A stretch of DNA of 43,927 nt. Source: a virus (lineage: Duplodnaviria; Caudoviricetes). Every line of letters begins with the position of its first letter. Position 1 is the stretch's first letter. Positions 13,513 through 26,023 of this stretch are shown here, piece after piece. Location: IMG/VR virus record IMGVR_UViG_3300048895_000218, positions 1 to 43,927 of that record. One strand, given 5' to 3'. Under the pieces are notes generated by a model that was not told where the DNA came from, ran no database searches, and saw only the letters and a list, made by a program, of their open reading frames with translations. The translations under genes were made by a program, and so were the position numbers.

Positions 13513-14508
13513 ATGATGACCGCAGAGGGGAATCAATGGGACGCGGAACTCAGCAACCAGCAGAAATACAACCGGCTACGACCGAAGAACATCGTAGAGG
13601 TGCGACTGGTCTCGCACGCAGGGGCGGAAGAACGGTGGTTCCGCGCAAAGATTAAGGACACGAACAAGGAAGGCGCCTACTGCCAAATCGTTGACGGGCC
13701 GCATACCCGTTTCTGGCACTGGCGCGAGGTTCGGGTATGCGCTGCGACGACGGGACTCGGAGCCATATCAGCGACGCTTGGAGAGGTAGCGCAGACGCAC
13801 CTTAAGCCGGTCGCTGACCTGCCGCGTAGGGAGCCGATGCCGGCCCCGTCTGCGCTTCGCGCTGCGCTGGTTCCAGTCTCCACGCCAGCGCCAGCTCAGC
13901 TGGTGCGGATCACACACGAACCGAAAGCGCTTGGAGGTGTCCCGATCATGCAATCAGACGAACCCGTCACAGCAGGCGAAATGGTTCGCCGAGCGCGCCA
14001 AGCCGCGGGCCTCACGCAAGACGCGCTAGCCGCCAAGCTTGCGAAGCTGACGGGCGAAAGCGGTCTGACGAACAAGCGCTTAAGCGCGCTGGAAACCGGC
14101 TTCCGTCCACCGACGGAGACGGAGCAGATCGCGATCGTGGAAGCGCTTGGCATCGACCTCGCGCAGCTCCTAGCGGCGTGTGAACGCGATGCCGTGCGAC
14201 GAGAGGAAGAGGCGAAGAAAGCGCGCGCGCGCGAGAACACGCAACGCAGGCGCGCAGAGCGAGCAGCGGCCGCCGGTCGCGAGATTGTACCACGCGCATC
14301 GAAATACCGGCCACGCGAGGCTGCGATCGTGGTCGCCCCTCCTGCCGCCCGGGTATCCAAGCGCGCCCCGGTCGCCCCATCTGGCGCGGGAGACACACTC
14401 GAAGACCTGATCGACGCACTGATTGCGATCGTGCCGATGCCGAGCGATCGGGAAGAGCGGCAAAACTGGTTCCGCTGCGCGCGTGAATTGTTCGCGCTGT
14501 CGAGGTAG
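13513..14508 (+). CDS. XRE-HTH protein with N-terminal Tudor/Agenet-like domain
   Basis: VRRARQAAGLTQDALAAKL..LSALETGFRPP; N-terminal IVEV..WFRAKI..EVRV. Confidence 0.7.
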   Translation: MMTAEGNQWDAELSNQQKYNRLRPKNIVEVRLVSHAGAEERWFRAKIKDTNKEGAYCQIVDGPHTRFWHWREVRVCAATTGLGAISATLGEVAQTHLKPVADLPRREPMPAPSALRAALVPVSTPAPAQLVRITHEPKALGGVPIMQSDEPVTAGEMVRRARQAAGLTQDALAAKLAKLTGESGLTNKRLSALETGFRPPTETEQIAIVEALGIDLAQLLAACERDAVRREEEAKKARARENTQRRRAERAAAAGREIVPRASKYRPREAAIVVAPPAARVSKRAPVAPSGAGDTLEDLIDALIAIVPMPSDREERQNWFRCARELFALSR

Positions 14509-14515
14509 GTGAGTC

Positions 14516-15070
14516 ATGGGAAAGGTACTACCGAAACGGCGAACCAATACGATCAAGGAAGCAACGAGCCCGCTCGGTCTCGCGATTCGTAACGCGCGCG
14601 TGGCCAAGCAAATACCGCAGCGAGTAATCGCTGAAGCCCTGGCTTCGAAGTGCGGCGGCGAGCCGACGAACGTTCGTGTGAGCTGCTTTGAGCTGGACCG
14701 AAAGCTGCCGAGCGACGCAGAGCTAACGGTGCTCGCTCAAATGCTCGGGCTGAGCGTAGTCAGCCTGCGCGAGCTGCGCGAGGCTAGCCGGCGCGACGTC
14801 AAGAAAGCCAACAAGGAAAGGTACGAGCACCAAGTAGCGACAGGGGTAAAGACCCCATCGTTTCGGATGAAGCCCCGCGGGGAAGCACGCGCGGCCCCGG
14901 CATCCGCAAGGGTGCCCAAGGCCAAAGCGCAAGAGCCCGCAGGCGTGCCGATGCTCGCCGATCTGGTAGAGCAGATCGATGAGATCGCCCCGATGCCTGC
15001 GGACAAGGACGCACGCAAGCGCTGGTTCCACTGCGTGACCATGCTGTCACGCATCGGAGCCGCGTCGTGA
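14516..15070 (+). CDS. XRE-HTH protein, paralog of the upstream gene
   Basis: IRNARVAKQIPQRVIAEAL..VSCFELDRKLPS; shared C-terminal PMP.D...R..WF.C. Confidence 0.75.
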   Translation: MGKVLPKRRTNTIKEATSPLGLAIRNARVAKQIPQRVIAEALASKCGGEPTNVRVSCFELDRKLPSDAELTVLAQMLGLSVVSLRELREASRRDVKKANKERYEHQVATGVKTPSFRMKPRGEARAAPASARVPKAKAQEPAGVPMLADLVEQIDEIAPMPADKDARKRWFHCVTMLSRIGAAS

Positions 15071-15727: not shown

Positions 15728-16008
15728 GAGCCCTGACCTATTGCTCGTTCGCCGACGGCACCGGATGCAAGGGCATCGTGATCCTGGAGGGCGCGCTCGA
15801 CCCGCTGCAAGCGGCCGTGCGTGCCTGCGAGCTTGGAGTAAACCCGGGCGGCGAGCTGCTAGCGTTCCCACTCAATGACCAGGAGCCCGATGTGTCGGCG
15901 GAGCTTTTCGCGACGATGGCAGCCAACGTGCACCGACTCATCTCGGTAGCGGAGGGGAGAGTCTTGTTCAAGGCGCGCTCTCTCGGAGAGTACCTGGACG
16001 CGAACTGA
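15724..16008 (+). CDS. Hypothetical protein, 94 aa
   Basis: ATGA coupling; MRALTYCSFAD. Confidence 0.7.
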   Translation: MRALTYCSFADGTGCKGIVILEGALDPLQAAVRACELGVNPGGELLAFPLNDQEPDVSAELFATMAANVHRLISVAEGRVLFKARSLGEYLDAN

Positions 16009-16180
16009 GCTTGCGCCATCCACGCTTGCCGCCGACGTGGGTGTACGGGCTTGGTAGGTCGAGGGCCACGCAAATCTTGTTCACAGCTGAGCGCTCAATC
16101 TGAGCGACCAGCGCGTGCGAGATACCGAGCCGGCGCGCCACCTCCCGCTGACTGAGCACGCCTAGTGCGCGGCGGCTCAT
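15968..16180 (-). CDS. Small sigma70 region-4-like HTH protein, 70 aa
   Basis: LSQREVARRLGISHALVAQIERSAVNKI. Confidence 0.65.
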   Translation of the reverse strand: MSRRALGVLSQREVARRLGISHALVAQIERSAVNKICVALDLPSPYTHVGGKRGWRKLSSRPGTLRESAP

Positions 16181-16395
16181 TCCGCGGCCCTCGGCACGAG
16201 CCTCAGCGTGCGCCCCTTGCCGTCCTCCCACGCCACCTCACCCCGTGCGCGCATGGCGTCGAGGTGCTGGGCGACGCAGCTAGGGCTGACCCGCAGCACC
16301 TCCGAAAGCTCACGCAAGCTAGGCGCGAAGCCGTGCGCCTCGGTGCCGATTCGGATGGCCTCCGCAATCTGCGAGCGACGTTCACGCGCGGTCAT
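16177..16395 (-). CDS. Stand-alone LexA DNA-binding domain protein, 72 aa
   Basis: HGFAPSLRELSEVLRVSPSCVAQHLDAMRARGEVAWEDGKGRTL; no peptidase domain. Confidence 0.8.
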   Translation of the reverse strand: MTARERRSQIAEAIRIGTEAHGFAPSLRELSEVLRVSPSCVAQHLDAMRARGEVAWEDGKGRTLRLVPRAAE

Positions 16396-16730
16396 GTTGC
16401 GATCGCCGCCTCGTAGCTGCGCCGTGTGACTAGCTCGATGGGAGGGAGCGGCACGTGCGCCAGCTTGCACCGCGGGCAGCCGGCGAAGGGGCGACGATGC
16501 CCGAGGTCGAAGCACTCGTCGCAGGTCTGACCCGGCAGAAGCGGCGGGCGGTTCATGGCGCGGCGGGCCGCCCGAGCGGCACGGTGCGCCTTCTTCCGGA
16601 CGCGGCAGCACGCCCGGCAGTGCGGGTGGTAGCCGTCCCGCCCGTGGTCGTGACGGCCGAAGTTCTCGCTGTTGAGCGGGAGCTTCCGCTTGCAGGTTCG
16701 GCACTCCCGGCGAACTTGGACGCTGTCCAT
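16392..16730 (-). CDS. Zinc-binding protein, 112 aa
   Basis: CRTC..F..DG..CRAC plus CDEC/CPRC. Confidence 0.7.
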   Translation of the reverse strand: MDSVQVRRECRTCKRKLPLNSENFGRHDHGRDGYHPHCRACCRVRKKAHRAARAARRAMNRPPLLPGQTCDECFDLGHRRPFAGCPRCKLAHVPLPPIELVTRRSYEAAIAT

Positions 16731-17224
16731 CAGTGGCGCTCCTTCCAAGCGTTGTGCGCTTGGATCCATCTCTCGTCGGCAAAAGCCTGGCCGTACTTCC
16801 GGCGCATCGCCTTAGCGAACCGGTCCCGGTGCGCCTCGGTCCGCTCGCGGCTGAGCTCGCGCCCGGTCGCCTCGAAGTAGGCCAGCTTGACGACTTCGAG
16901 CTTCGCCAGCCACTCCTCCCACGCATGGAAGATGACCGCGTTCCGCCAGTCCCACGCAGCGCGGGCCGCCGTGCCAGGCTCGGGGGGATTGAGCGCGTCG
17001 AGCGCGCTGTAGTCGTCCGGGAATACCGCCGAGCCCCGGAGCCCATAGTCGGCCGCCTGGGCGCCGCGTTGCTCCTGCGCTCGCCAGGTCGGTTCGAGCT
17101 GGACGTACAGCGCGTGCAGCTTGGCTGCGACGGCGCGGTCAGGGACGGCGCGGAGCTTGTCCAGGCCGCGGAGCTTGGTCGCGTCCGCGGTCGGCGAGTA
17201 CGGGTAATCCCGCTCGGTGGTCAC
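16730..17224 (-). CDS. Hypothetical protein, 164 aa (possible replication accessory)
   Basis: Coupled directly after the initiator. Confidence 0.65.
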   Translation of the reverse strand: MTTERDYPYSPTADATKLRGLDKLRAVPDRAVAAKLHALYVQLEPTWRAQEQRGAQAADYGLRGSAVFPDDYSALDALNPPEPGTAARAAWDWRNAVIFHAWEEWLAKLEVVKLAYFEATGRELSRERTEAHRDRFAKAMRRKYGQAFADERWIQAHNAWKERH

Positions 17225-18099
17225 TTGGCCCCCGCCAGGAACTCCTGCACCCGGCGCGACGACGCGAGGGCAGCGCGCGTGTCGTAGTCCACGTTCGGGC
17301 TGACCTCCTGCGGTCTGCCGCCGCGGAAACCAGCGGCCGGCACGGGCCGCCTGAACTCCGGCGCTCGGGCAATCCAGGTGTCGAAAGCCCGGTGCCAGTC
17401 AGCGAAAAGCGCGCCGGTCGACTGGTGCCGCGCGCTGAATTTCTCGAACTCCTCGGCGCAATTCAGCAGCAGCTCACGGCATTTTTCCTGCTGCCTGGGC
17501 AGCGGCTGCAAGTCCGGCGGGAACGGCGTGCTTGGCGCCTTCCTGAGCTTTTTGGCTCTCGGCGGCGGGTCCGGCGCAAACGAATTCAAATCCCCACGAG
17601 CAATGTCGCGGTCGCCCCCCTGGGGGGGTACCACCGAAGGTGGTGGGGGATCTCTTTCTGGTAGGGGAAGAGGAAGAGGAAGAGGAGAGGAAGAGGGCAG
17701 TGTGACTGACGGTGTGACTACGCGCGCTGTCACAGCGTCTGTCACGGTGTGACTACCGCGTGACTTCGCCTGCCGTTCGCTGTTACGGCGTCGTGACTCC
17801 AGCACGTCAGCGCGCGAACGGGACCACTGTCGGTAGTCATGCAATTGCACTCCACCTTCCGCCTCTTCGAGTAGGCCGACCGTTCGCAGCGCGGCGAGTG
17901 CCGCCGCTCGCTTCTTCGGATCGCGCGGGCCTCGCACATCAATCAGCATGTCGGTTGGGATGAACCCATCGGTCAGCTGCTTGCCGCAGTACGCGCGCAG
18001 CCCGAGCCACAGGAACGGGCCATCGCCGCCAACCATCGTCACCAGCCGAACGAATTTCGGGTGGTCCAGGATGCCGTCGTCGAGCTCCAGCCAGCTCAC
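17221..18099 (-). CDS. Replication initiator (RepA/replisome-organizer-like), 292 aa
   Basis: WLELDDGILDHPK, TDGFIP, LHDYRQW; C-terminal DnaT-like FADWHRAFDTWI; GTG 18099. Confidence 0.8.
   Translation of the reverse strand: MSWLELDDGILDHPKFVRLVTMVGGDGPFLWLGLRAYCGKQLTDGFIPTDMLIDVRGPRDPKKRAAALAALRTVGLLEEAEGGVQLHDYRQWSRSRADVLESRRRNSERQAKSRGSHTVTDAVTARVVTPSVTLPSSSPLPLPLPLPERDPPPPSVVPPQGGDRDIARGDLNSFAPDPPPRAKKLRKAPSTPFPPDLQPLPRQQEKCRELLLNCAEEFEKFSARHQSTGALFADWHRAFDTWIARAPEFRRPVPAAGFRGGRPQEVSPNVDYDTRAALASSRRVQEFLAGAK
17660..17800. other. Putative replication origin inside the initiator gene
   Basis: Cluster of GTGAC/GTCAC iterons next to a GGAAGA purine-tract repeat. Confidence 0.6.
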
Positions 18100-18419
18100 T
18101 TGAACAGCTCCAGTTGCTTTTGGGAGGGGGGCTTCCTGGGCTTCGTCGGGCGTGCCGACTGCCCCCGAGCGAAGGGGACCGTTGCGAAATGGAGCCCCGC
18201 TGCCCGAGCCTCGGCGCGCAGCGTGGCGAGGTCCGCCTCGGCGACCCGCCACTCGGGCAGCGTCCCGCGCTTGGCCTCGATGCCCCCGTGCGCCAAGGCG
18301 AACGCCCACACCCCGCCACCGTTCGGGTAGCGGAGACGAGCCCATGGGCGAGCCCCGTCGAACCCGTCAAACTCGCACACCTTCTCCACTCCGCCGAGAT
18401 GAACGATCGTGATGTTCAT
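18096..18419 (-). CDS. Hypothetical protein, 107 aa
   Basis: Coupled; ends QLELFK, resembling a beta-clamp-binding motif. Confidence 0.7.
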   Translation of the reverse strand: MNITIVHLGGVEKVCEFDGFDGARPWARLRYPNGGGVWAFALAHGGIEAKRGTLPEWRVAEADLATLRAEARAAGLHFATVPFARGQSARPTKPRKPPSQKQLELFK

Positions 18420-18766
18420 TGGTCCCGCTCCTTTTCCGCCACCTCGCCAAACCGCTCGACCAGCTGCTCCACCAGCTCAGCCAGCCCCGGGTCACGGGCG
18501 CATTTCGCACCCATGGACCGGACCCCGGTGAGCACCGTCGTATGGTTCCGACCGAACGCGCGCCCCAGCTCCGGGTAGCTCAGCCGGGTGCAGCGGCGGG
18601 CCACCACGTAGGCCGCTAGCCGCCCCTCCTTCACCGACTTGCTCCTGTCCTTCCCGAGCAGGTCGTAAGCCCCGAGCCCGAACGCCTCCGCCGTGGCAGC
18701 GACGATCTGGTAGACCCTAGAGCTCCAGAGCGGGACCCCGGAAACCTGTGCCTCCAGGTCGGTCAC
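18416..18766 (-). CDS. Stand-alone DnaA C-terminal (domain IV) protein
   Basis: DLLGKDRSKSVKEGR..LSYPELGRAFGRNHTTVL. Confidence 0.85.
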   Translation of the reverse strand: MTDLEAQVSGVPLWSSRVYQIVAATAEAFGLGAYDLLGKDRSKSVKEGRLAAYVVARRCTRLSYPELGRAFGRNHTTVLTGVRSMGAKCARDPGLAELVEQLVERFGEVAEKERDQ

Positions 18767-18966
18767 GGCTTGGCCTCCTCGGCGTAGTCAGCCATCTCGG
18801 CCAGGGCCCGCGAGAGCTCCCGGGCTGCCCTGGGCGTGAACCCGAGCTTGAGGTCATGGGCCGTCAGGACCACCGCGCCCGGCCTCGCTTCGAGCGAGAT
18901 GGCGAGCCCGGAGACGACGCGGCCGGCCTGCTGGCGGCGCCGGAAGGGGAGGATGCGCGCGGTCAT
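18763..18966 (-). CDS. Hypothetical protein, 67 aa
   Basis: ATGA coupled to the integrase stop. Confidence 0.65.
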   Translation of the reverse strand: MTARILPFRRRQQAGRVVSGLAISLEARPGAVVLTAHDLKLGFTPRAARELSRALAEMADYAEEAKP

Positions 18967-20504
18967 GAGGCGACCTCCGCCGGAGCATCGGCCAGCAAGC
19001 CGTCACGCTCTGCGACGTGCGCAAGGACCGCGCGAGCGAGCGCTACTGACTTGGTGTGGGTGAGCGGATCGCCTGCCTCGACGGCCTGCAAAACCTCGAT
19101 TGCGAGCCCCCCGAGAGCCTGAAGCACGTGTGCTTCAGTTGGTGCGTTTCTCTCGGGGTTTGTGCCAATTTGGGTGAGTGACGGGGATAGATACTTTTGA
19201 GGGGTTTTGTCGAGGTTTTTGGGGGGTCGTGCCTCAGACTGTGCCTCAAGAACCGCATCGCTTCCCGAGAGGCATAAGAGCTGCTGAGCGGTCAAGGCTT
19301 CCGGACTCTCCGGTCGCGCCTTCCGCCCCGTGAAGTGCCGAACCTGCCGCTGCCACGTCCCGTCCTCGTACTTGCCGTAGTACCGTTCGGTCGTCGTGAT
19401 GTCGGCGTGCCCCAGCTGATCCTGGATGAACTGGAGCGACTGCGGATCGTAGCCCCACGTCCCGCTCAGCATCGCCACCGCGTAGCTGTGCCGCATCACA
19501 TGCGAGGTGATCCCCTTGCCGCCCACCACCTCCCGCCAGCTCGGCGACCCGTCCTTCGGCTCCTCCGCGAACTTCTCCGGCCACGCCTTCCGATAGCCGC
19601 CCTTCGGGCCCGCGAAGATTTGCGGGCCGTTCTCCGGTCGGTAAAACCCCCTCATCCAAAGACGAAAAAATCCAAGCCCCGGCTCAAACAATTCCACCCG
19701 CCGCTCCTCCCGACCCTTCGGCGGCGCGTGCCCGTCGCCCCCGTACAGAACCCACAGGTGGGGGTCGTCCGCATCCAGGTGAAGCTCCGTCACCTCCAGC
19801 GCCAAGAGCTCGCCGATGCGCAGCCCCGACCCCATGCCGCAGCCGGCCAGGATCCGATCCATCAGCTCGATCTCGCGCGACCCGAAAAATTTGAGCTGCT
19901 CCGGCAGCGTCATGTAGACAATGCGAGGCTTGCTCTTGCTCGGCAGCTCCAGCGAGTCGACCGGATTGGGCAGCACCTTGGCGCGCTTGAATACCGCCGC
20001 CACCAGCCGCCCCACGTTGCCGATGAACGAGCCGCTCAGCGGCTCGCCCGTCGTCTGACTCTCCGCCTCGTCCTTCAGCCAGTCGAACCAGTTTTGCAAG
20101 ACGGGGATTTCGATCCGGTTCGGCGGGTCCTGATAGAAGGGCGCATTCTGCAAGTGCACCTCGTCGATGGACTTCCAAGTCGACACGGCTTTGTTTGCTC
20201 GGTTGATGGAGCCGTACGTGCGCTTGGCCTCCGTGAACCGACCGCGGATCTCTTGCTGCACATAGTTCGCGAACGGCAGCCCATGCCGGAGCGCGGCCAC
20301 GTCCGACTGCTCCAAGACGGCCGCGTCCAGGATCCGCCGCGCCTCGTCCCAACTTGAGAATGTCCCCACCGGGCGCTGGTAGGTCTCGGGGTTCTTACAG
20401 CCCTTCGGCGCCGGCTTACTCAGCTCGCGCGGCAAGAGCGCTTGGAATCTCGCTCCTCCGCGCAGGGTGCGGATCGAGCCAGAGTTCTGTTCATTTTTCG
20501 CCAT
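18963..20504 (-). CDS. int: Tyrosine integrase with long C-terminal extension
   Basis: GLRIGE (R), PPKG (K), HVMRHSY (HxxR), LGHADITTTERYY (H, Y). Confidence 0.92.
   Translation of the reverse strand: MAKNEQNSGSIRTLRGGARFQALLPRELSKPAPKGCKNPETYQRPVGTFSSWDEARRILDAAVLEQSDVAALRHGLPFANYVQQEIRGRFTEAKRTYGSINRANKAVSTWKSIDEVHLQNAPFYQDPPNRIEIPVLQNWFDWLKDEAESQTTGEPLSGSFIGNVGRLVAAVFKRAKVLPNPVDSLELPSKSKPRIVYMTLPEQLKFFGSREIELMDRILAGCGMGSGLRIGELLALEVTELHLDADDPHLWVLYGGDGHAPPKGREERRVELFEPGLGFFRLWMRGFYRPENGPQIFAGPKGGYRKAWPEKFAEEPKDGSPSWREVVGGKGITSHVMRHSYAVAMLSGTWGYDPQSLQFIQDQLGHADITTTERYYGKYEDGTWQRQVRHFTGRKARPESPEALTAQQLLCLSGSDAVLEAQSEARPPKNLDKTPQKYLSPSLTQIGTNPERNAPTEAHVLQALGGLAIEVLQAVEAGDPLTHTKSVALARAVLAHVAERDGLLADAPAEVAS
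19119..19248 (-). other. Putative attP inside int
   Basis: Core 19172-19188 reads ATC-CCCGT-CACTCAC-C-C on minus, like a tRNA-His 3' end; flanked by TGA(G/A)GCAC repeats; locally AT-rich. Confidence 0.7.
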
Positions 20505-20508
20505 GCGT

Positions 20509-20796
20509 TTAGCCTCGGGTCCTTCTCAAGTCGCCGTCTCGGAGCAGCGCGCGCGCTCGCGCTCGGTCCACCTCGCTCGGCGGCGCAATCGTCGGCCGGT
20601 GCGGGGTCTTTGGTTTCTGTAGGGTGCGCAGATCCACCACCTCGCCCTCGGCCATTTCTGCCCAAATAGCGGCGCGCTGCGCCCCGAGCTGCGCCCGGCG
20701 CGAGGCCAGCTCCGCCATCTGCCCGTCGAGCTCAGCCGAGTCGTGGTCGATGCGCGCAAGCTTCGCCATACGCAGCTTTCCGTCCGCTTTGTTCAT
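20509..20796 (-). CDS. Coiled-coil hypothetical protein, 95 aa (possible excision factor)
   Basis: Immediately upstream of int; function inferred from position only. Confidence 0.55.
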   Translation of the reverse strand: MNKADGKLRMAKLARIDHDSAELDGQMAELASRRAQLGAQRAAIWAEMAEGEVVDLRTLQKPKTPHRPTIAPPSEVDRARARALLRDGDLRRTRG

Positions 20797-20899
20797 GGGA
20801 AACCTGCCGCTGAAATGCTAGCTTCGGTGTGTCCTGTTAACGCAGGGCCAACGTCCCGGTCGTGTTGCAGCGACTCGGGACGTGTTTCATTTAGCACAC

Positions 20900-21004
20900 T
20901 CACCGCCCCCTCGTGTAGTCGATCAGCTCCCACACGAAGTGCACAGCGACGACGAGCGCCATCATCGCGACCCCAACCTTCAGCACGTCGATCGCTAGCG
21001 ACAT
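20900..21004 (-). CDS. 34-aa single-TM peptide MSLAIDVLKVGVAMMALVVAVHFVWELIDYTRGR
   Basis: Strong GGAGGAG RBS 6 nt before ATG; not in the ORF track. Confidence 0.7.
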   Translation of the reverse strand: MSLAIDVLKVGVAMMALVVAVHFVWELIDYTRGR

Positions 21005-21020
21005 TGTTTTCTCCTCCGCG

Positions 21021-21602
21021 TCAGAGAGCTTTTCGAATCCTCGCAAGCAGCGCCATGCGTGCCGCCTCGCCCGAGTACGGAGCGAGGCAGCCGCGCCCGC
21101 TGAGCACTCGCCACATGCCGACCTCGGGCTGCACCGACCGGAACCCGCGGCACTCGGCGACGGCTCCTGCCTGGGCGACTCGTGCCGCTCTCGCTTGCAC
21201 TAGCGCGTCCTCCGTCCCCCACACGTCCGCGTTCAGGCGGTTCTGATGGAGCTGGTAGGTGCCCCACGCTCGGTGTCGGCGCACGCCGTCGCGATCGGTA
21301 TAAGCGTCGCCCTCGTGGCTGCGGTACTCCGAGCGCGAGACCGCCGCCGTCAGCCCCGACTCCAAGACCGCCATGGTGAGCAGCCGGGCCGCGCACTCCC
21401 GATCCTGGTTGCACGCCACGGCGATGGCGTTGCCAAACTCCACCGGTTCGACTAACTCCACCCCGCGCGTGCCGAGCCGCGGGACCAGCTCAGCGATCCG
21501 CTCAGCCAGGCGCGAATAGTCGGCGCGCGCGACCGAACACACCAGGGCGAGCAGGGCCAGGAACGCGATCGTGACCCAGCCGATCTTGTTGACCGGGCTC
21601 AC
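21021..21602 (-). CDS. Lysozyme-fold / lytic transglycosylase-like protein with N-terminal signal or anchor
   Basis: MAVLESG (catalytic E) and AWGTYQL motifs; hydrophobic N-terminus ending ARA; GTGA coupled to cro. Confidence 0.65.
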   Translation of the reverse strand: MSPVNKIGWVTIAFLALLALVCSVARADYSRLAERIAELVPRLGTRGVELVEPVEFGNAIAVACNQDRECAARLLTMAVLESGLTAAVSRSEYRSHEGDAYTDRDGVRRHRAWGTYQLHQNRLNADVWGTEDALVQARAARVAQAGAVAECRGFRSVQPEVGMWRVLSGRGCLAPYSGEAARMALLARIRKAL

Positions 21603-21874
21603 GCTGCCCCACGCCTTCGGGGCCTGGGCTCGACGGGGCCGAAGTCGGGCTCCGGCCCAATGCCGAACGCCAGCCACTCGGAGCGCACCCCAAGCGCCTG
21701 CGCCAGCTTCTCCACCGTCGGCAGGGTGGGGTTATTGATGACCGCCCCGTAGATTTCGCCCGACCGTTCGAGCATCGAAACGTAGCTGTTAGAAAGGCCC
21801 GCCCGCGCTGCGAGCTCCTTTTGGATCCAGCCCCGCTTGTTGCGCACCATCCGCACCCGATCCGCCAACGTCAT
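21599..21874 (-). CDS. Cro-like XRE HTH regulator
   Basis: LADRVRMVRNKRGWIQKELAARAGLSNSYVSMLE..NPTLPTVEKLAQALGV..WL. Confidence 0.85.
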   Translation of the reverse strand: MTLADRVRMVRNKRGWIQKELAARAGLSNSYVSMLERSGEIYGAVINNPTLPTVEKLAQALGVRSEWLAFGIGPEPDFGPVEPRPRRRGAA

Positions 21875-21961
21875 GGATTAGCGAACTAGCATACATCGTG
21901 GCGCTAATCTAGTAGGGAATTGTAGTGCGCTTAGTCCACTAATTATGCTAGGATAACGGCT
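21875..21961. promoter_or_regulatory. Lysis/lysogeny switch region with operators
   Basis: Divergent TATGCT -10 boxes; degenerate GATTAG-N4-CTAATC sites at 21876-21891, 21894-21909, 21929-21944. Confidence 0.7.
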
Positions 21962-22393
21962 GTGTCGGAAACTATCGCGGATCGCATCCGCCGGCTGGTC
22001 AGGAAAGCCGTCGATGATGGCAAGTTCAGGTCGTCAAATCACTTCTGGGGTCCCGACGGCTGTGGCCTCAGCAAAGACTACCTCGGCAACCTGCGTTCCC
22101 GGCTCAAGACCGACCCCGACGCCACGGTGACGTACGAGAGCGCCGCCAAGATCGCGCGGGCCCTCGAACTACCGGTGAGCGCTGTCACCGGCAGGGACGA
22201 GAGCCAAGAACCGATCACTGACCCCTACCCGAACCGGGCCAGGGCCGTGAGCGCGGCGCGGGACCTCCAGCTGCCCGAAGCCGCGATCCGCGTCATTCAG
22301 CGGGAGAACCCCGGGCACGACATGCCCCGGCTCTCCTGGTTTCTGCGGATCCAAGCTGAGGCGGTACGCCTCCAGCCAGCCTCCAGCGGCTAG
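21962..22393 (+). CDS. CI-like repressor (HTH, no peptidase domain)
   Basis: Divergent from cro; GLSKDYLGNL..VTYESAAKIARALELPV. Confidence 0.65.
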   Translation: MSETIADRIRRLVRKAVDDGKFRSSNHFWGPDGCGLSKDYLGNLRSRLKTDPDATVTYESAAKIARALELPVSAVTGRDESQEPITDPYPNRARAVSAARDLQLPEAAIRVIQRENPGHDMPRLSWFLRIQAEAVRLQPASSG

Positions 22394-22655
22394 CGCCTCC
22401 TGCTCTAACGAGTGAGCTGTAGCGAGCGCGCGGCACAGGACCGCGTTGTCGCCCCTCACGATTTGCAGTTGCTCAGCCACGCCCCCGACCCCGCGGCGAA
22501 ACAACGTGAGCGTGTCGCCGCTGATAGCTCCCAACATCAACACACTACCGCCACACTCGTACATGGGCGTCTAGTGGGTAAGTAATAATTCTGACTTGCC
22601 TTTCCGCAACACTTCAGGAAAGGGGGGCCACCGTACAGAAAGATACCGATCTAGG

Positions 22656-22691
22656 TTGATTAGTTTGCTAATCTAGCCTAGACTGCTGGGC
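22656..22691 (+). promoter_or_regulatory. Sigma70 promoter with perfect operator GATTAG-TTTG-CTAATC (22658-22673)
   Basis: TTGATT-N17-TAGACT-N7-ATG. Confidence 0.75.
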
Positions 22692-23054
22692 ATGAACTTC
22701 GCGCCCGCCCCGCTGCCCCCGTCCTGCGACGCCTGCGGCGCTCGTATCGACTACGAGCCCGAAGACCCCACCGGCATCGCCTGCAACGACTGCTGGCAAG
22801 AAAGCGAGCTGAAGGCTCAAGCGGAGGCCGTCCGTGAGTTCCGCTGGGCGGCTCGCAATTGGCTCCGCTGCGACGGCTGCAAGGGCACCGGAGAGCGCCG
22901 CGACGAGCACTGCTACTGCCGCCTGGGGCAAGCCATGCACGCCGCCGAGGCCAAGCGTTTCGAGTTCGTGCGCGGCCTGCCTGCGCTGGCCGTGACCTCG
23001 CCCCGGGCCCTCCGCGAAAGCGAGCTCGACCCGCAGCTGAGGATCGCCCAATGA
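22692..23054 (+). CDS. Zinc-finger-like hypothetical protein, 120 aa
   Basis: CDAC, CNDC, CDGCKGTG, CYC. Confidence 0.7.
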   Translation: MNFAPAPLPPSCDACGARIDYEPEDPTGIACNDCWQESELKAQAEAVREFRWAARNWLRCDGCKGTGERRDEHCYCRLGQAMHAAEAKRFEFVRGLPALAVTSPRALRESELDPQLRIAQ

Positions 23055-24830: not shown

Positions 24831-24980
24831 TTACGGGCCCGCGCCCGCTTCGCCGATAGCGGCCACGGGCCCCGGGCAATCGACGGAGACCGCGGCGACG
24901 GTGCAGCCGATGAACAGGCGGCAGCAGAGCCAAAGTAGCAGCAGGCAGACCAGGCCGAGCGCGTAGTCGGAGGCCGTCAT
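24831..24980 (-). CDS. 49-aa hydrophobic, possibly lipidated peptide (candidate lysis accessory)
   Basis: ATGA coupled; MTASDYALGLVCLLLLWLCCRLFIGC...; last late gene. Confidence 0.5.
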   Translation of the reverse strand: MTASDYALGLVCLLLLWLCCRLFIGCTVAAVSVDCPGPVAAIGEAGAGP

Positions 24981-26023
24981 ACCGCGATCGCGCCCGGCCC
25001 GTAGCCGGCTGCCGAATTGATGGCAGCGTCGAAGGCGGCATAGCTGGTCGGTACGACGTAGCCCACCATGAAAATCTCGCAGTTGCCGTTACGCGCGGCA
25101 GTGAAGATGCCACCGATCACGCGCTGAGTGCTGATGAGTCCGCCCGTGTTCGAGCCCGTCACGGGCGCCGCGCTGCCCATTTTGAACGTGTCGGCCGTCG
25201 AGTTCGTGAACAGCGCTGCGAAGCGCTGATTAGTGAGCGGCACTGGTGTGACGCTCAGAGTCCCAACGCCCGAATATTGGGTGAAATCGCCGGCCGCGAG
25301 CGAGATAATACAAGCCTGGAACGGGGTGTCGCCGCCCACGAATGAATTGGCCGCGGTCGGAGCCGATACCGCGCGCCCCACGACTAGCAAGAGGCACGGG
25401 TAGGGGAGCGTGATCGTGCTCAGCAAATAGTCGTCGGCAGCATCGAACAGGAGGCCCACCTTGCCGTTGAGGCCAGCCGTGATGATCGGCTGTAGGCTCG
25501 CCGTGGCCTGCGTGTAATGCTTGCCGTTGCCGCTCTGGTCGAGGAGCCCCGCGCAGGTAGCCTTCCAAATATTGCCGTTGACGGAAGTGTTAGCGGTCCA
25601 CGTCAGCCCCAGGCCGGTGCCTGCGCCTGTCAGCGCGATCGTTGCTCCGCCCACGGGCACTAGGCCCGACATACCCGGCGTTACTCCTAGCCCGTCATAG
25701 TAGACGTCGAACGTGCCCCCCGTGCCGACCCCGAGGCTGTTCGTAGCCTTGACCCACACGGGCACGGGCACGCCCGCGATCGTGCCGGACACTTGGACGA
25801 TCGTGAGTGAGCCATTGCCGGCGTTCGGCTTGGCAATGTTGCCGTAGGTGAGCCCCTTGTCGGCCTGGACCAGCTGATAGGCGCCAGGAAACAGATCGAT
25901 GTAGTTGCCGCTGAACGGCGGAGGCCCGCCACTGTCCGGCCAATTGACGCCAGTCGGCCAATTGACCCCTGTGGGCCAATTGACGCCAGTCGGCCAATTA
26001 GTCGCGGTGGGCCAGCTCGGCAT
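24977..26023 (-). CDS. Tail fibre / receptor-binding protein with lectin (LamG)-like C-terminus
   Basis: DQSGNGKHYTQAT..QP..GLNG...LLFDAADDYL pattern; N-terminal NWPTGV repeats. Confidence 0.65.
   Translation of the reverse strand: MPSWPTATNWPTGVNWPTGVNWPTGVNWPDSGGPPPFSGNYIDLFPGAYQLVQADKGLTYGNIAKPNAGNGSLTIVQVSGTIAGVPVPVWVKATNSLGVGTGGTFDVYYDGLGVTPGMSGLVPVGGATIALTGAGTGLGLTWTANTSVNGNIWKATCAGLLDQSGNGKHYTQATASLQPIITAGLNGKVGLLFDAADDYLLSTITLPYPCLLLVVGRAVSAPTAANSFVGGDTPFQACIISLAAGDFTQYSGVGTLSVTPVPLTNQRFAALFTNSTADTFKMGSAAPVTGSNTGGLISTQRVIGGIFTAARNGNCEIFMVGYVVPTSYAAFDAAINSAAGYGPGAIAV

Follow-up and report, generated by a model that had tools for sequence, protein, structure and literature searches.

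Does this phage cut its own integrase gene when it integrates, and with it the operon that leads to its replication genes? The question concerns a locus on the minus strand of what we call the window, the whole stretch of DNA analyzed, which is a whole contig of 43,927 nt; since its ends overlap by 127 nt, the genome is considered circular. It carries terminase, capsid, tail, and RecT genes, and ARAGORN found no tRNA gene in it. Our answer, which we consider fairly likely, is that attP lies in int, where relatives are split at its core, and that integration would shorten the integrase Int by about 69 residues and likely unplug the replication genes from the cro-side promoter until excision. 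Behind this answer stand the core, the arm spacing, the attL and attR forms in relatives, the loss of the tail with the catalytic residues kept, the gene order, and the gene overlaps, all of which are observed.

The first-pass annotation of this DNA had placed int mid-operon, after cro and before a DnaA domain IV gene and rep, and the order is as described:

21962..22393, plus strand: divergent gene, a putative repressor by its position only, no family match
21599..21874, minus strand: Cro-like helix-turn-helix (HTH) gene, first of the leftward block (HTH_3, E 2e-13)
20900..21602, minus strand: two genes of 193 and 48 aa between cro and the xis-like gene, the larger without a family match
20509..20796, minus strand: 95-aa protein directly upstream of int, by its position a putative directionality factor (xis-like)
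18963..20504, minus strand: tyrosine integrase Int, 513 aa, the long form that spans attP (Pfam PF00589, Phage_integrase)
18763..18966, minus strand: 67-aa gene, its start overlapping the int stop by 4 nt
18416..18766, minus strand: DnaA domain IV-like (DnaA_C) HTH protein (PF08299, E 7e-15)
18096..18419, minus strand: 107-aa conserved gene, no PHROG match
17221..18099, minus strand: phage replication initiator, rep (phrog_2447, E 1.6e-27)

The overlaps are of 4 nt from int to rep, and down to position 15968 all neighboring genes from int onward share 1 or 4 nt. The DnaA domain IV gene, which had been counted among the replication genes, does encode such an HTH protein, but the initiator is the gene at 17221-18099. 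A homologue of the 95-aa xis-like protein, which itself has no match in Pfam, PHROG, or Atlas, is found upstream of int in most of the loci listed, and the divergent gene occupies an equivalent place in loci L011 and L016.

The integrase gene and its tRNA-His core

The Phage_integrase domain of Int covers residues 212-378 (Pfam, E 1.6e-10), with the catalytic Tyr376 encoded at 19377-19379. From 98 protein search matches, 94 were kept as candidates for the Int family and 93 were aligned; R229, H339, H366, and Y376 are invariant in the 93, and the fold of Int resembles those of the Tn1549 and lambda integrases. The window carries the unsplit form of the gene, with 137 residues after Y376 (about 135 had been estimated), and the AT-rich patch reported in this tail is visible as a GC dip over 19244-19125 (GC 0.52-0.55, third-position GC 0.5, against 0.75-1.0 in most blocks of codons 21-400), the GC-poor part being codons 421-460. 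Tails of the family are mutually dissimilar apart from short peptides; they extend more than 100 residues past the tyrosine in 74 of the 93 members and 50 or fewer in 12, with 7 between. A single-sequence search of viral contigs returned no relative of the window phage. Some short integrases of about 405 aa (L025 1706, P0010, P0014, P0016, and P0022) end at a TGA, apparently where the first arm site starts, and a shift of 1-2 nt could turn the att-in-int layout into the classical one with att after int.

The elements that concern integration are as follows, the first five from upstream to downstream in the sense of int and the last at the protein level:

19229..19248, minus strand: two direct TGAGGCAC repeats, putative arm-type sites with fixed spacing in relatives
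19189..19228, minus strand: A-tract spacer from the arms to the core, encoding a predicted disordered linker (pLDDT <50, residues 430-453)
19172..19188, minus strand, same sense as int: attP core, a 17-nt copy of the tRNA-His(GTG) 3′ end, int codons 439-444
19109..19158, minus strand: extended hairpin, in which a 9-bp outer stem (19158-19150 with 19117-19109) encloses the inverted pair
19119..19138, minus strand: inverted 9-nt pair, putative arm-type sites beyond the core (half-sites 19138-19130 and 19127-19119)
19005..19136, minus strand: putative detachable C-terminal helical hairpin of Int, residues 457-500 (from pLDDT, pN/pS, and recurrence behind tRNAs)

The minus strand from 19188 to 19172 reads ATCCCCGTCACTCACCC, which is identical over its 17 nt to the 3′ end of the tRNA-His(GTG) that ARAGORN calls in the Polyangiaceae genome G001. 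The tRNA-His match that the first-pass annotation had put forward as a check was thus found, and its parse of the patch as T-loop end, T-stem, acceptor strand, and C discriminator holds. A 14-nt version of the core occurs once in the window, a count that is no evidence alone, shuffles with 2 mismatches averaging 0.58 matches; it is the conservation of the core across related loci that takes it beyond chance. It lies 164-243 nt past the catalytic tyrosine codon in 22 of 41 related loci and is absent from 15, most of which have arm-like repeats around a different core (4 loci did not parse, and the 41 include some duplicates). Among the 94 homologues the core is translated in two frames, as a PRHSP-like peptide in 43 and a PSLT-like peptide in 17, with neither in 34, and, from the sequences, these peptides are two frames of one DNA motif. 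Synonymous divergence is also low around it, with pS of 0.10-0.15 over codons 411-464 against 0.29-0.32 over codons 1-410 (window, L016, and L017). The core was found in 135 of 383 Polyangiaceae genomes, a tally that includes G283, used for this purpose only, against 7 for a reversed control pattern, and ARAGORN calls tRNA-His(GTG) at 25 of the 29 core loci examined, with 14-17 nt in common with the window. A scan of viral contigs for the core gave 119 loci, mostly the tRNAs or att sites of other phages or chance matches; one has a weak Int-family match and none has the Int tail. We regard it as nearly certain that attP lies within int.

Other members of the same integrase family (L011, L012, L013, L014, L024, L030, L033, L039, L042, and L045) have arm-like repeats around a non-His core, and L024 resembles an attR beside host genes. 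At L220 (G247:C162, 247-1581 and 236-308), an integrase weakly like the Int family (E 7e-6) ends inside a tRNA-His in the antisense orientation, on a 16.8-kb island with terminase-like and capsid-like genes recognized by eye; this locus suggests that att-in-int at tRNA-His may have more than one origin. The tRNA-His-targeting int/attP cassette could serve as an integration tool for Polyangiaceae.

Split integrases in relatives and the detachable tail

The expectation that the boundaries of related prophages would fall at the core was confirmed in genomes of Polyangiaceae, myxobacteria of the soil. The core and a matching tRNA 3′ end occur together with split integrated forms in G001, G002, L018, L021, L031, and L038, all relatives and not the window phage itself. 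One end of these consists of an intact tRNA-His followed by the int tail, and the other of a truncated int followed by host DNA. Contig 44 of G002 has the core twice, at a distance of 23.9 kb; one copy forms the end of an intact tRNA-His and the other is inside an int damaged by an IS. The two equivalent ends of G001 are on contigs 119 and 319. A tail profile, made from 69 protein tails of which none was taken from the G001 or G002 attL ends, matches 65 nt past the core behind both tRNAs (E 9.5e-9 and 6.6e-8). Comparison of L018 with the phage-form locus L020 gives 89% identity over the 300 nt before the core and 26% over the 100 nt after it. Host DNA lies beyond the core in six loci; the genes past the core resemble those for PP2C and ribosome recycling factor in L002, L005, L031, and L038 (Pfam-checked for L002), and in L018 and L021 a terminator with a hairpin and a U-run follows.

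It had been proposed that recombination near codon 440 would replace the last 70 or so residues of Int, and the split relatives agree, with about 69 residues lost. For the window phage, integration is predicted to leave a product made of Int residues 1-444 and a host-encoded extension whose length, over the 33 flanks tried, goes from 1 to 200 or more residues with a median of 33; in the three cleanest attR loci it is 1. All the invariant residues are at or before L410, upstream of the core, and are retained after the split. For the window phage, four contig runs over 17000-22500 gave no joint or loose end at the core among those listed; contigs drop rare forms, and two of these runs are possibly the source of the window. 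The host species of the phage was not found, nor was an intact prophage recovered in which tRNA-His is followed by a window-type rep block, the integrated copies that are fully seen being small or decayed islands.

AlphaFold2, given the family alignment, predicts disorder at residues 430-453 of the tail and then two helices, 457-476 and 482-500, with pLDDT of 90-95 in the blocks spanning 461-500. The ratio pN/pS is 0.17-0.21 in codons 465-505, compared with 0.12-0.18 in residues 1-410, on the basis of three close sequences with 4-5 amino-acid-changing differences per pair in the tail; a pN/pS of about 0.2 points to purifying selection on the helical hairpin, and since synonymous divergence is normal in codons 465-505, there is no sign there of an embedded DNA element. 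The hairpin is present twice in several family members, and a tail profile matches 43 of the 383 Polyangiaceae genomes. Thirty tail loci were inspected, 6 of them already in the profile; 9 of the other 24 have an intact tRNA (Thr, Arg, or His) 33-85 nt before the tail, and further loci have partial or antisense tRNA-like ends by eye. G088 has a 21-kb island with an integrase of a sister group, an antisense His att, and the same tail, and G122 has a tRNA-Thr island with a sister integrase. In L238, L239, L242, L244, and L254, the tail module is preceded by antisense sequences whose resemblance we take to be to tmRNA or tRNA 3′ ends.

No named family for the module exists in Pfam, PHROG, or Atlas, and a weak profile search for longer tail-bearing proteins found 8, of which Pfam identifies five as integrases, the others being fragments or att-adjacent frames. 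An ssrA-like tag at the Int C-terminus was considered and rejected by inspection, the C-termini varying in step with the overlap between int and the start of the following gene. The tail need not be translated in every member, since the 12 members that end within 50 residues of the tyrosine include some that end before the core. We nonetheless judge the tail to be probably functional, and the hairpin would then be a defined 44-residue handle on how the behavior of an integrase changes after integration.

Myxococcus phage Mx8 provides the obvious comparison. In the work of Tojo (1996) and Magrini (1999), as summarized in a review (PMC6070905), Mx8 has attP in the 3′ part of a tyrosine integrase gene, with a tRNA as target, and its integration replaces the 3′ end of int while the altered enzyme stays active; the target is named as tRNA-Asp in PMC13454183, whereas that of the window phage is tRNA-His. 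The window phage is Mx8-like in its intact catalytic residues, in a core that lies in the int frame past the tyrosine, and in its split relatives with matching tRNAs. Homology to Mx8 Int was rejected for lack of sequence similarity in integrase or tail: tblastn with the two integrases gives nothing, the family profile scores 2.6 bits, the tails are unrelated by sequence, and no proteins are shared between the phages at E 1e-4. Moreover, in our reading of the Mx8 record, its T-loop motif is antisense to int, near codon 419, whereas the window core is sense. Judged from the sequences, the system operates in the manner of Mx8 but is not homologous to it, and att-in-int is itself old. Further features here are a detachable and apparently selected helical hairpin, predicted to fold and found with several tRNA targets, a core in the sense of int together with a covarying hairpin in the nucleic acid, and the conserved placement of attP between the early promoter and the replication genes. 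What is new is that the part removed is a predicted helical hairpin under purifying selection, common to several tRNA targets (His, Thr, and Arg). One of the few links to Mx8 is the 72-aa gene at 16177-16395, which matches phrog_3502, the family of Mx8 p17; like it, p17 stands between int and the late genes.

Two other systems differ more. In mycobacteriophage BPs (PMC4557955), attP is inside the repressor gene, and integration removes a C-terminal ssrA-like degradation tag and changes the behavior of the protein. Both phages thus have attP inside a gene that loses a C-terminal segment; however, BPs splits its repressor, whereas the window attP is in int and the HTH genes are 2.4 kb away, and the part lost is a degradation tag in BPs but a predicted folded hairpin here. 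In archaeal elements of the SSV type, PMC7253208 places attP in int at a tRNA 3′ end, with int(N) and int(C) flanking the element, the catalytic tyrosine in int(C), and both pieces inactive. Against that account, all the invariant residues in the window phage stay in the N-terminal piece.

Putative arm-type sites and the hairpin beyond the core

Both repeats that the first-pass annotation had noted on the two sides of the core, direct at 19229-19248 and inverted at 19119-19138, were found in place. The TGAGGCAC copies are at 19248-19241 and 19236-19229, 63 and 51 nt before the 14-nt core. Among relatives, the arms sit at -63/-51 and +34/+45 in one of the frame classes; in the other, the positions are mostly -62/-50 and +35/+46. 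A shift of one base before the core is thus offset by one after it, and the frame of the tail is kept. Fixed paired sites flanking a core are the pattern of arm-type binding, as in attP sites of the lambda type. In 10 of the 13 loci with an extractable half-site, the inverted half-site fits the upstream repeats of its own locus better than those of others (12.6 versus 10.7 of 14), although related loci are not independent.

The inverted repeat had also been suggested as a terminator of read-through from the host tRNA gene. As an intrinsic terminator it is ruled out, there being no U-tract: none directly follows the stem in 13 loci, and 14 of 16 loci have at most 4 T per 8 nt. Because the half-sites co-vary with the direct repeats and the U-tract is missing, the best reading of the inverted pair on these sequences is two arm-type sites for the integrase. 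What survives of the suggestion is that read-through may still be damped, since the inverted pair is inside a longer conserved hairpin whose 9-nt outer repeat was absent from that annotation. The extended hairpin has a predicted energy of -28.8 kcal/mol (z -3.75, 0 of 200 shuffles), and in a prophage it would come after the tRNA 3′ end. Over the 80 nt past the core, z is below -2 in 14 of 17 loci, with a mean of -3.85; among the controls, folding as good as this is seen in 0 of 14 loci upstream of the core, in 0 of 14 for the catalytic region, and in 4 of 17 for the next 80 nt. As the arms alone would yield part of this signal, the flanks were tested without the inverted arms. Own flanks pair at -13.2 kcal/mol, compared with -7.8 when swapped (0 of 5000 permutations, 12 loci), and the outer stem is better than shuffled flanks in 7 of 11 loci, or 5 of 11 under a stricter cut. 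The outer stems covary in relatives, and the hairpin is absent in two loci with att antisense to int, which are close relatives of each other. By these measures, the longer hairpin is retained in many sense-oriented elements, and it is a fair guess that it insulates against the tRNA promoter. A C-rich Rho-loading site past the core was considered and set aside as too weak, C exceeding G in at most 8 of 9 loci and clearly in 6. Rfam gave two chance matches over 18700-22700 with E up to 5.

Replication genes beyond the attachment site

The first-pass annotation held that integration would disconnect the replication genes from the cro promoter. The geometry stands and the layout is conserved, but it is not special to the window phage. 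Of the phage-form loci that extend 3.5 kb or more past int, 13 were scanned, and in 10 of them replication genes lie downstream of int on the same strand (the window, L011, L013, L014, L016, L019, L020, L033, L034, and L035, with no match in L003, L015, and L032; L043 was left out, and the search covered selected frames). In 10 of 15 loci, the start of the following gene overlaps the int stop codon. No intergenic space separates int from rep in the window and L016, and nearly none in L011 and L033; in L019 and L035, rep is 8-9 kb from int, with gaps that possibly hold promoters. A conserved promoter gap before the xis-like gene is ruled out, the 103-nt gap there being missing in L016, L033, and L011, and one transcript from cro is favored for the same reason. 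A scan for sigma-70 sites found none in 16000-23000 or in L016; as it was blank even at the cro-repressor gap, it had no power.

Mx8 shows the same order (GenBank AF396866), with uoi, int, p13-p18, the initiator p19, and the DnaC gene p20 on one strand; both phages thus run from excisionase through int and small genes to a replication initiator on a single strand, and hence the layout is not special to the window phage. Since Mx8 combines this gene order with a cultured host, the gating idea is testable in Myxococcus xanthus.

Whether an induced prophage copies host DNA in place depends on which comes first, excision or replication. A genome arranged so that excision has to precede replication would solve this simply, and such an arrangement has so far been demonstrated in Tn916. 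In that element, according to PMC11658703, the integrated replication and transfer genes are cut off from their promoter and rejoined to it on circularization, and an insulator against host read-through was tested, made up of a stem and U-tract terminator with an RNA antiterminator. In 10 of our 13 loci, the geometry would put att between the promoter side and the replication genes; the promoter itself was not located by the scan. Tn916, by that account, is a conjugative element with its att junction outside int, whereas the window phage has att inside int and its gating would be a matter of inferred geometry; the Tn916 insulator has a U-tract, whereas the window hairpin is a stem without one. 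Our literature search, partly by title and the start of the abstract and with few subscription papers, found no phage in which replication is gated by excision.

We envisage the following course of events. In infection, a single transcript would run from cro through the xis-like gene and long Int to rep, with translation through attP coupled to the next gene via the 4-nt overlap. After integration, attL would consist of the rebuilt tRNA-His followed by the hairpin, the orphaned tail, and the rep block, and attR of cro, the xis-like gene, and a short Int ending in host DNA. Transcription entering from the tRNA promoter may be damped by the hairpin and the now untranslated stretch. Once the prophage is induced, only the xis-like protein and short Int would at first be made from the cro promoter; excision would then rejoin the operon, so that replication would come after it. 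The helical hairpin that is removed might tune the activity or direction of Int, as in the reported role of the Mx8 tail.

As the core is in the sense of int, the host tRNA promoter would face the rep block in a prophage, with no intrinsic terminator found between the two, and silencing of the block therefore needs an unproven mechanism. In the islands, 6 of 31 loci have a 4-nt overlap between the tail and the following gene, and a Rep-like gene lies past the tail in 5 of the 17 loci scanned, all below the Pfam cut-offs. On this evidence, we put excision-gated replication at even chances. The broader proposal is more tentative, namely, a double switch in a large Polyangiaceae integrase lineage, in which the helical hairpin is stripped from Int, the coupled rep block is unplugged, and the arm-site hairpin replaces the host terminator, with one helical domain serving tRNA-His, -Thr, and -Arg in either orientation. 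If it is true, such phages would be hard-wired to excise before replicating, and the domain would be a portable directionality domain for tyrosine integrases.

Three other explanations have to be weighed. The arrangement could be compact packing and nothing else, with rep served by a repressor-controlled promoter of its own past attP, its regulation untouched by the split, and the tail mainly keeping ribosomes moving to the following gene, an account that we find rather unlikely. It would accommodate the 12 of 93 short forms without a translated tail and an int-rep distance that varies from <1 kb to 9 kb with gaps, and the powerless promoter scan leaves room for an internal promoter; it sits poorly, however, with the closed or nearly closed int-rep intervals of the window, L016, L011, and L033, with the normal synonymous divergence in codons 465-505, and with a tail that is under protein-level selection and predicted to fold. 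Quite improbable is a swap of promoters, in which the tRNA-His promoter would drive expression of either the DnaA domain IV-like HTH protein or the orphaned tail, the latter starting internally, and so help to quiet the prophage. The sense orientation without a U-tract terminator would allow this, as would the tail frames open behind tRNAs in decayed islands and the 4-nt overlap there, but the hairpin is conserved in the sense class and absent in the two closely related antisense loci, and the tail is also kept in sister elements whose att is antisense, where no host promoter stands ahead of it. Constitutive expression of an initiator in situ would moreover be expected to harm the host, as shown for Tn916 (PMC11658703). 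We give next to no credence to the tRNA-like patch being a chance match or a dead remnant in a phage that integrates elsewhere or never, which draws on the missing joint among those listed in the four contig runs and on the host not being found, since core, arms, and spacing are conserved, the motif is read in two frames, and relatives have attL and attR forms.

Some minor observations concern the gene block and its surroundings. No helicase or loader was found beside the initiator (16730-18099), and most relatives have DnaB, DnaC, or primase. CTAG-containing motifs, possible operators, cluster in the cro-repressor gap (21886-21951) and upstream of 22692 (22651-22681), and a single copy stands ahead of the xis-like gene, at 20818. 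The stretch 13513-15070 encodes two neighboring HTH proteins of 331 and 184 aa that look related and have a similar C-terminal motif; in L013, a homologue occurs past the rep block, on its downstream side. The product of 24977-26023, likely a virion protein, has an N-terminal tandem peptide repeat, NWPTGV-like, in about four copies (25900-26023). Finally, L272 (G102:C46, 14416-16059) encodes, close to an att end, a fusion of reverse transcriptase and trypsin-like protease that looks like the product of a defense cargo gene.
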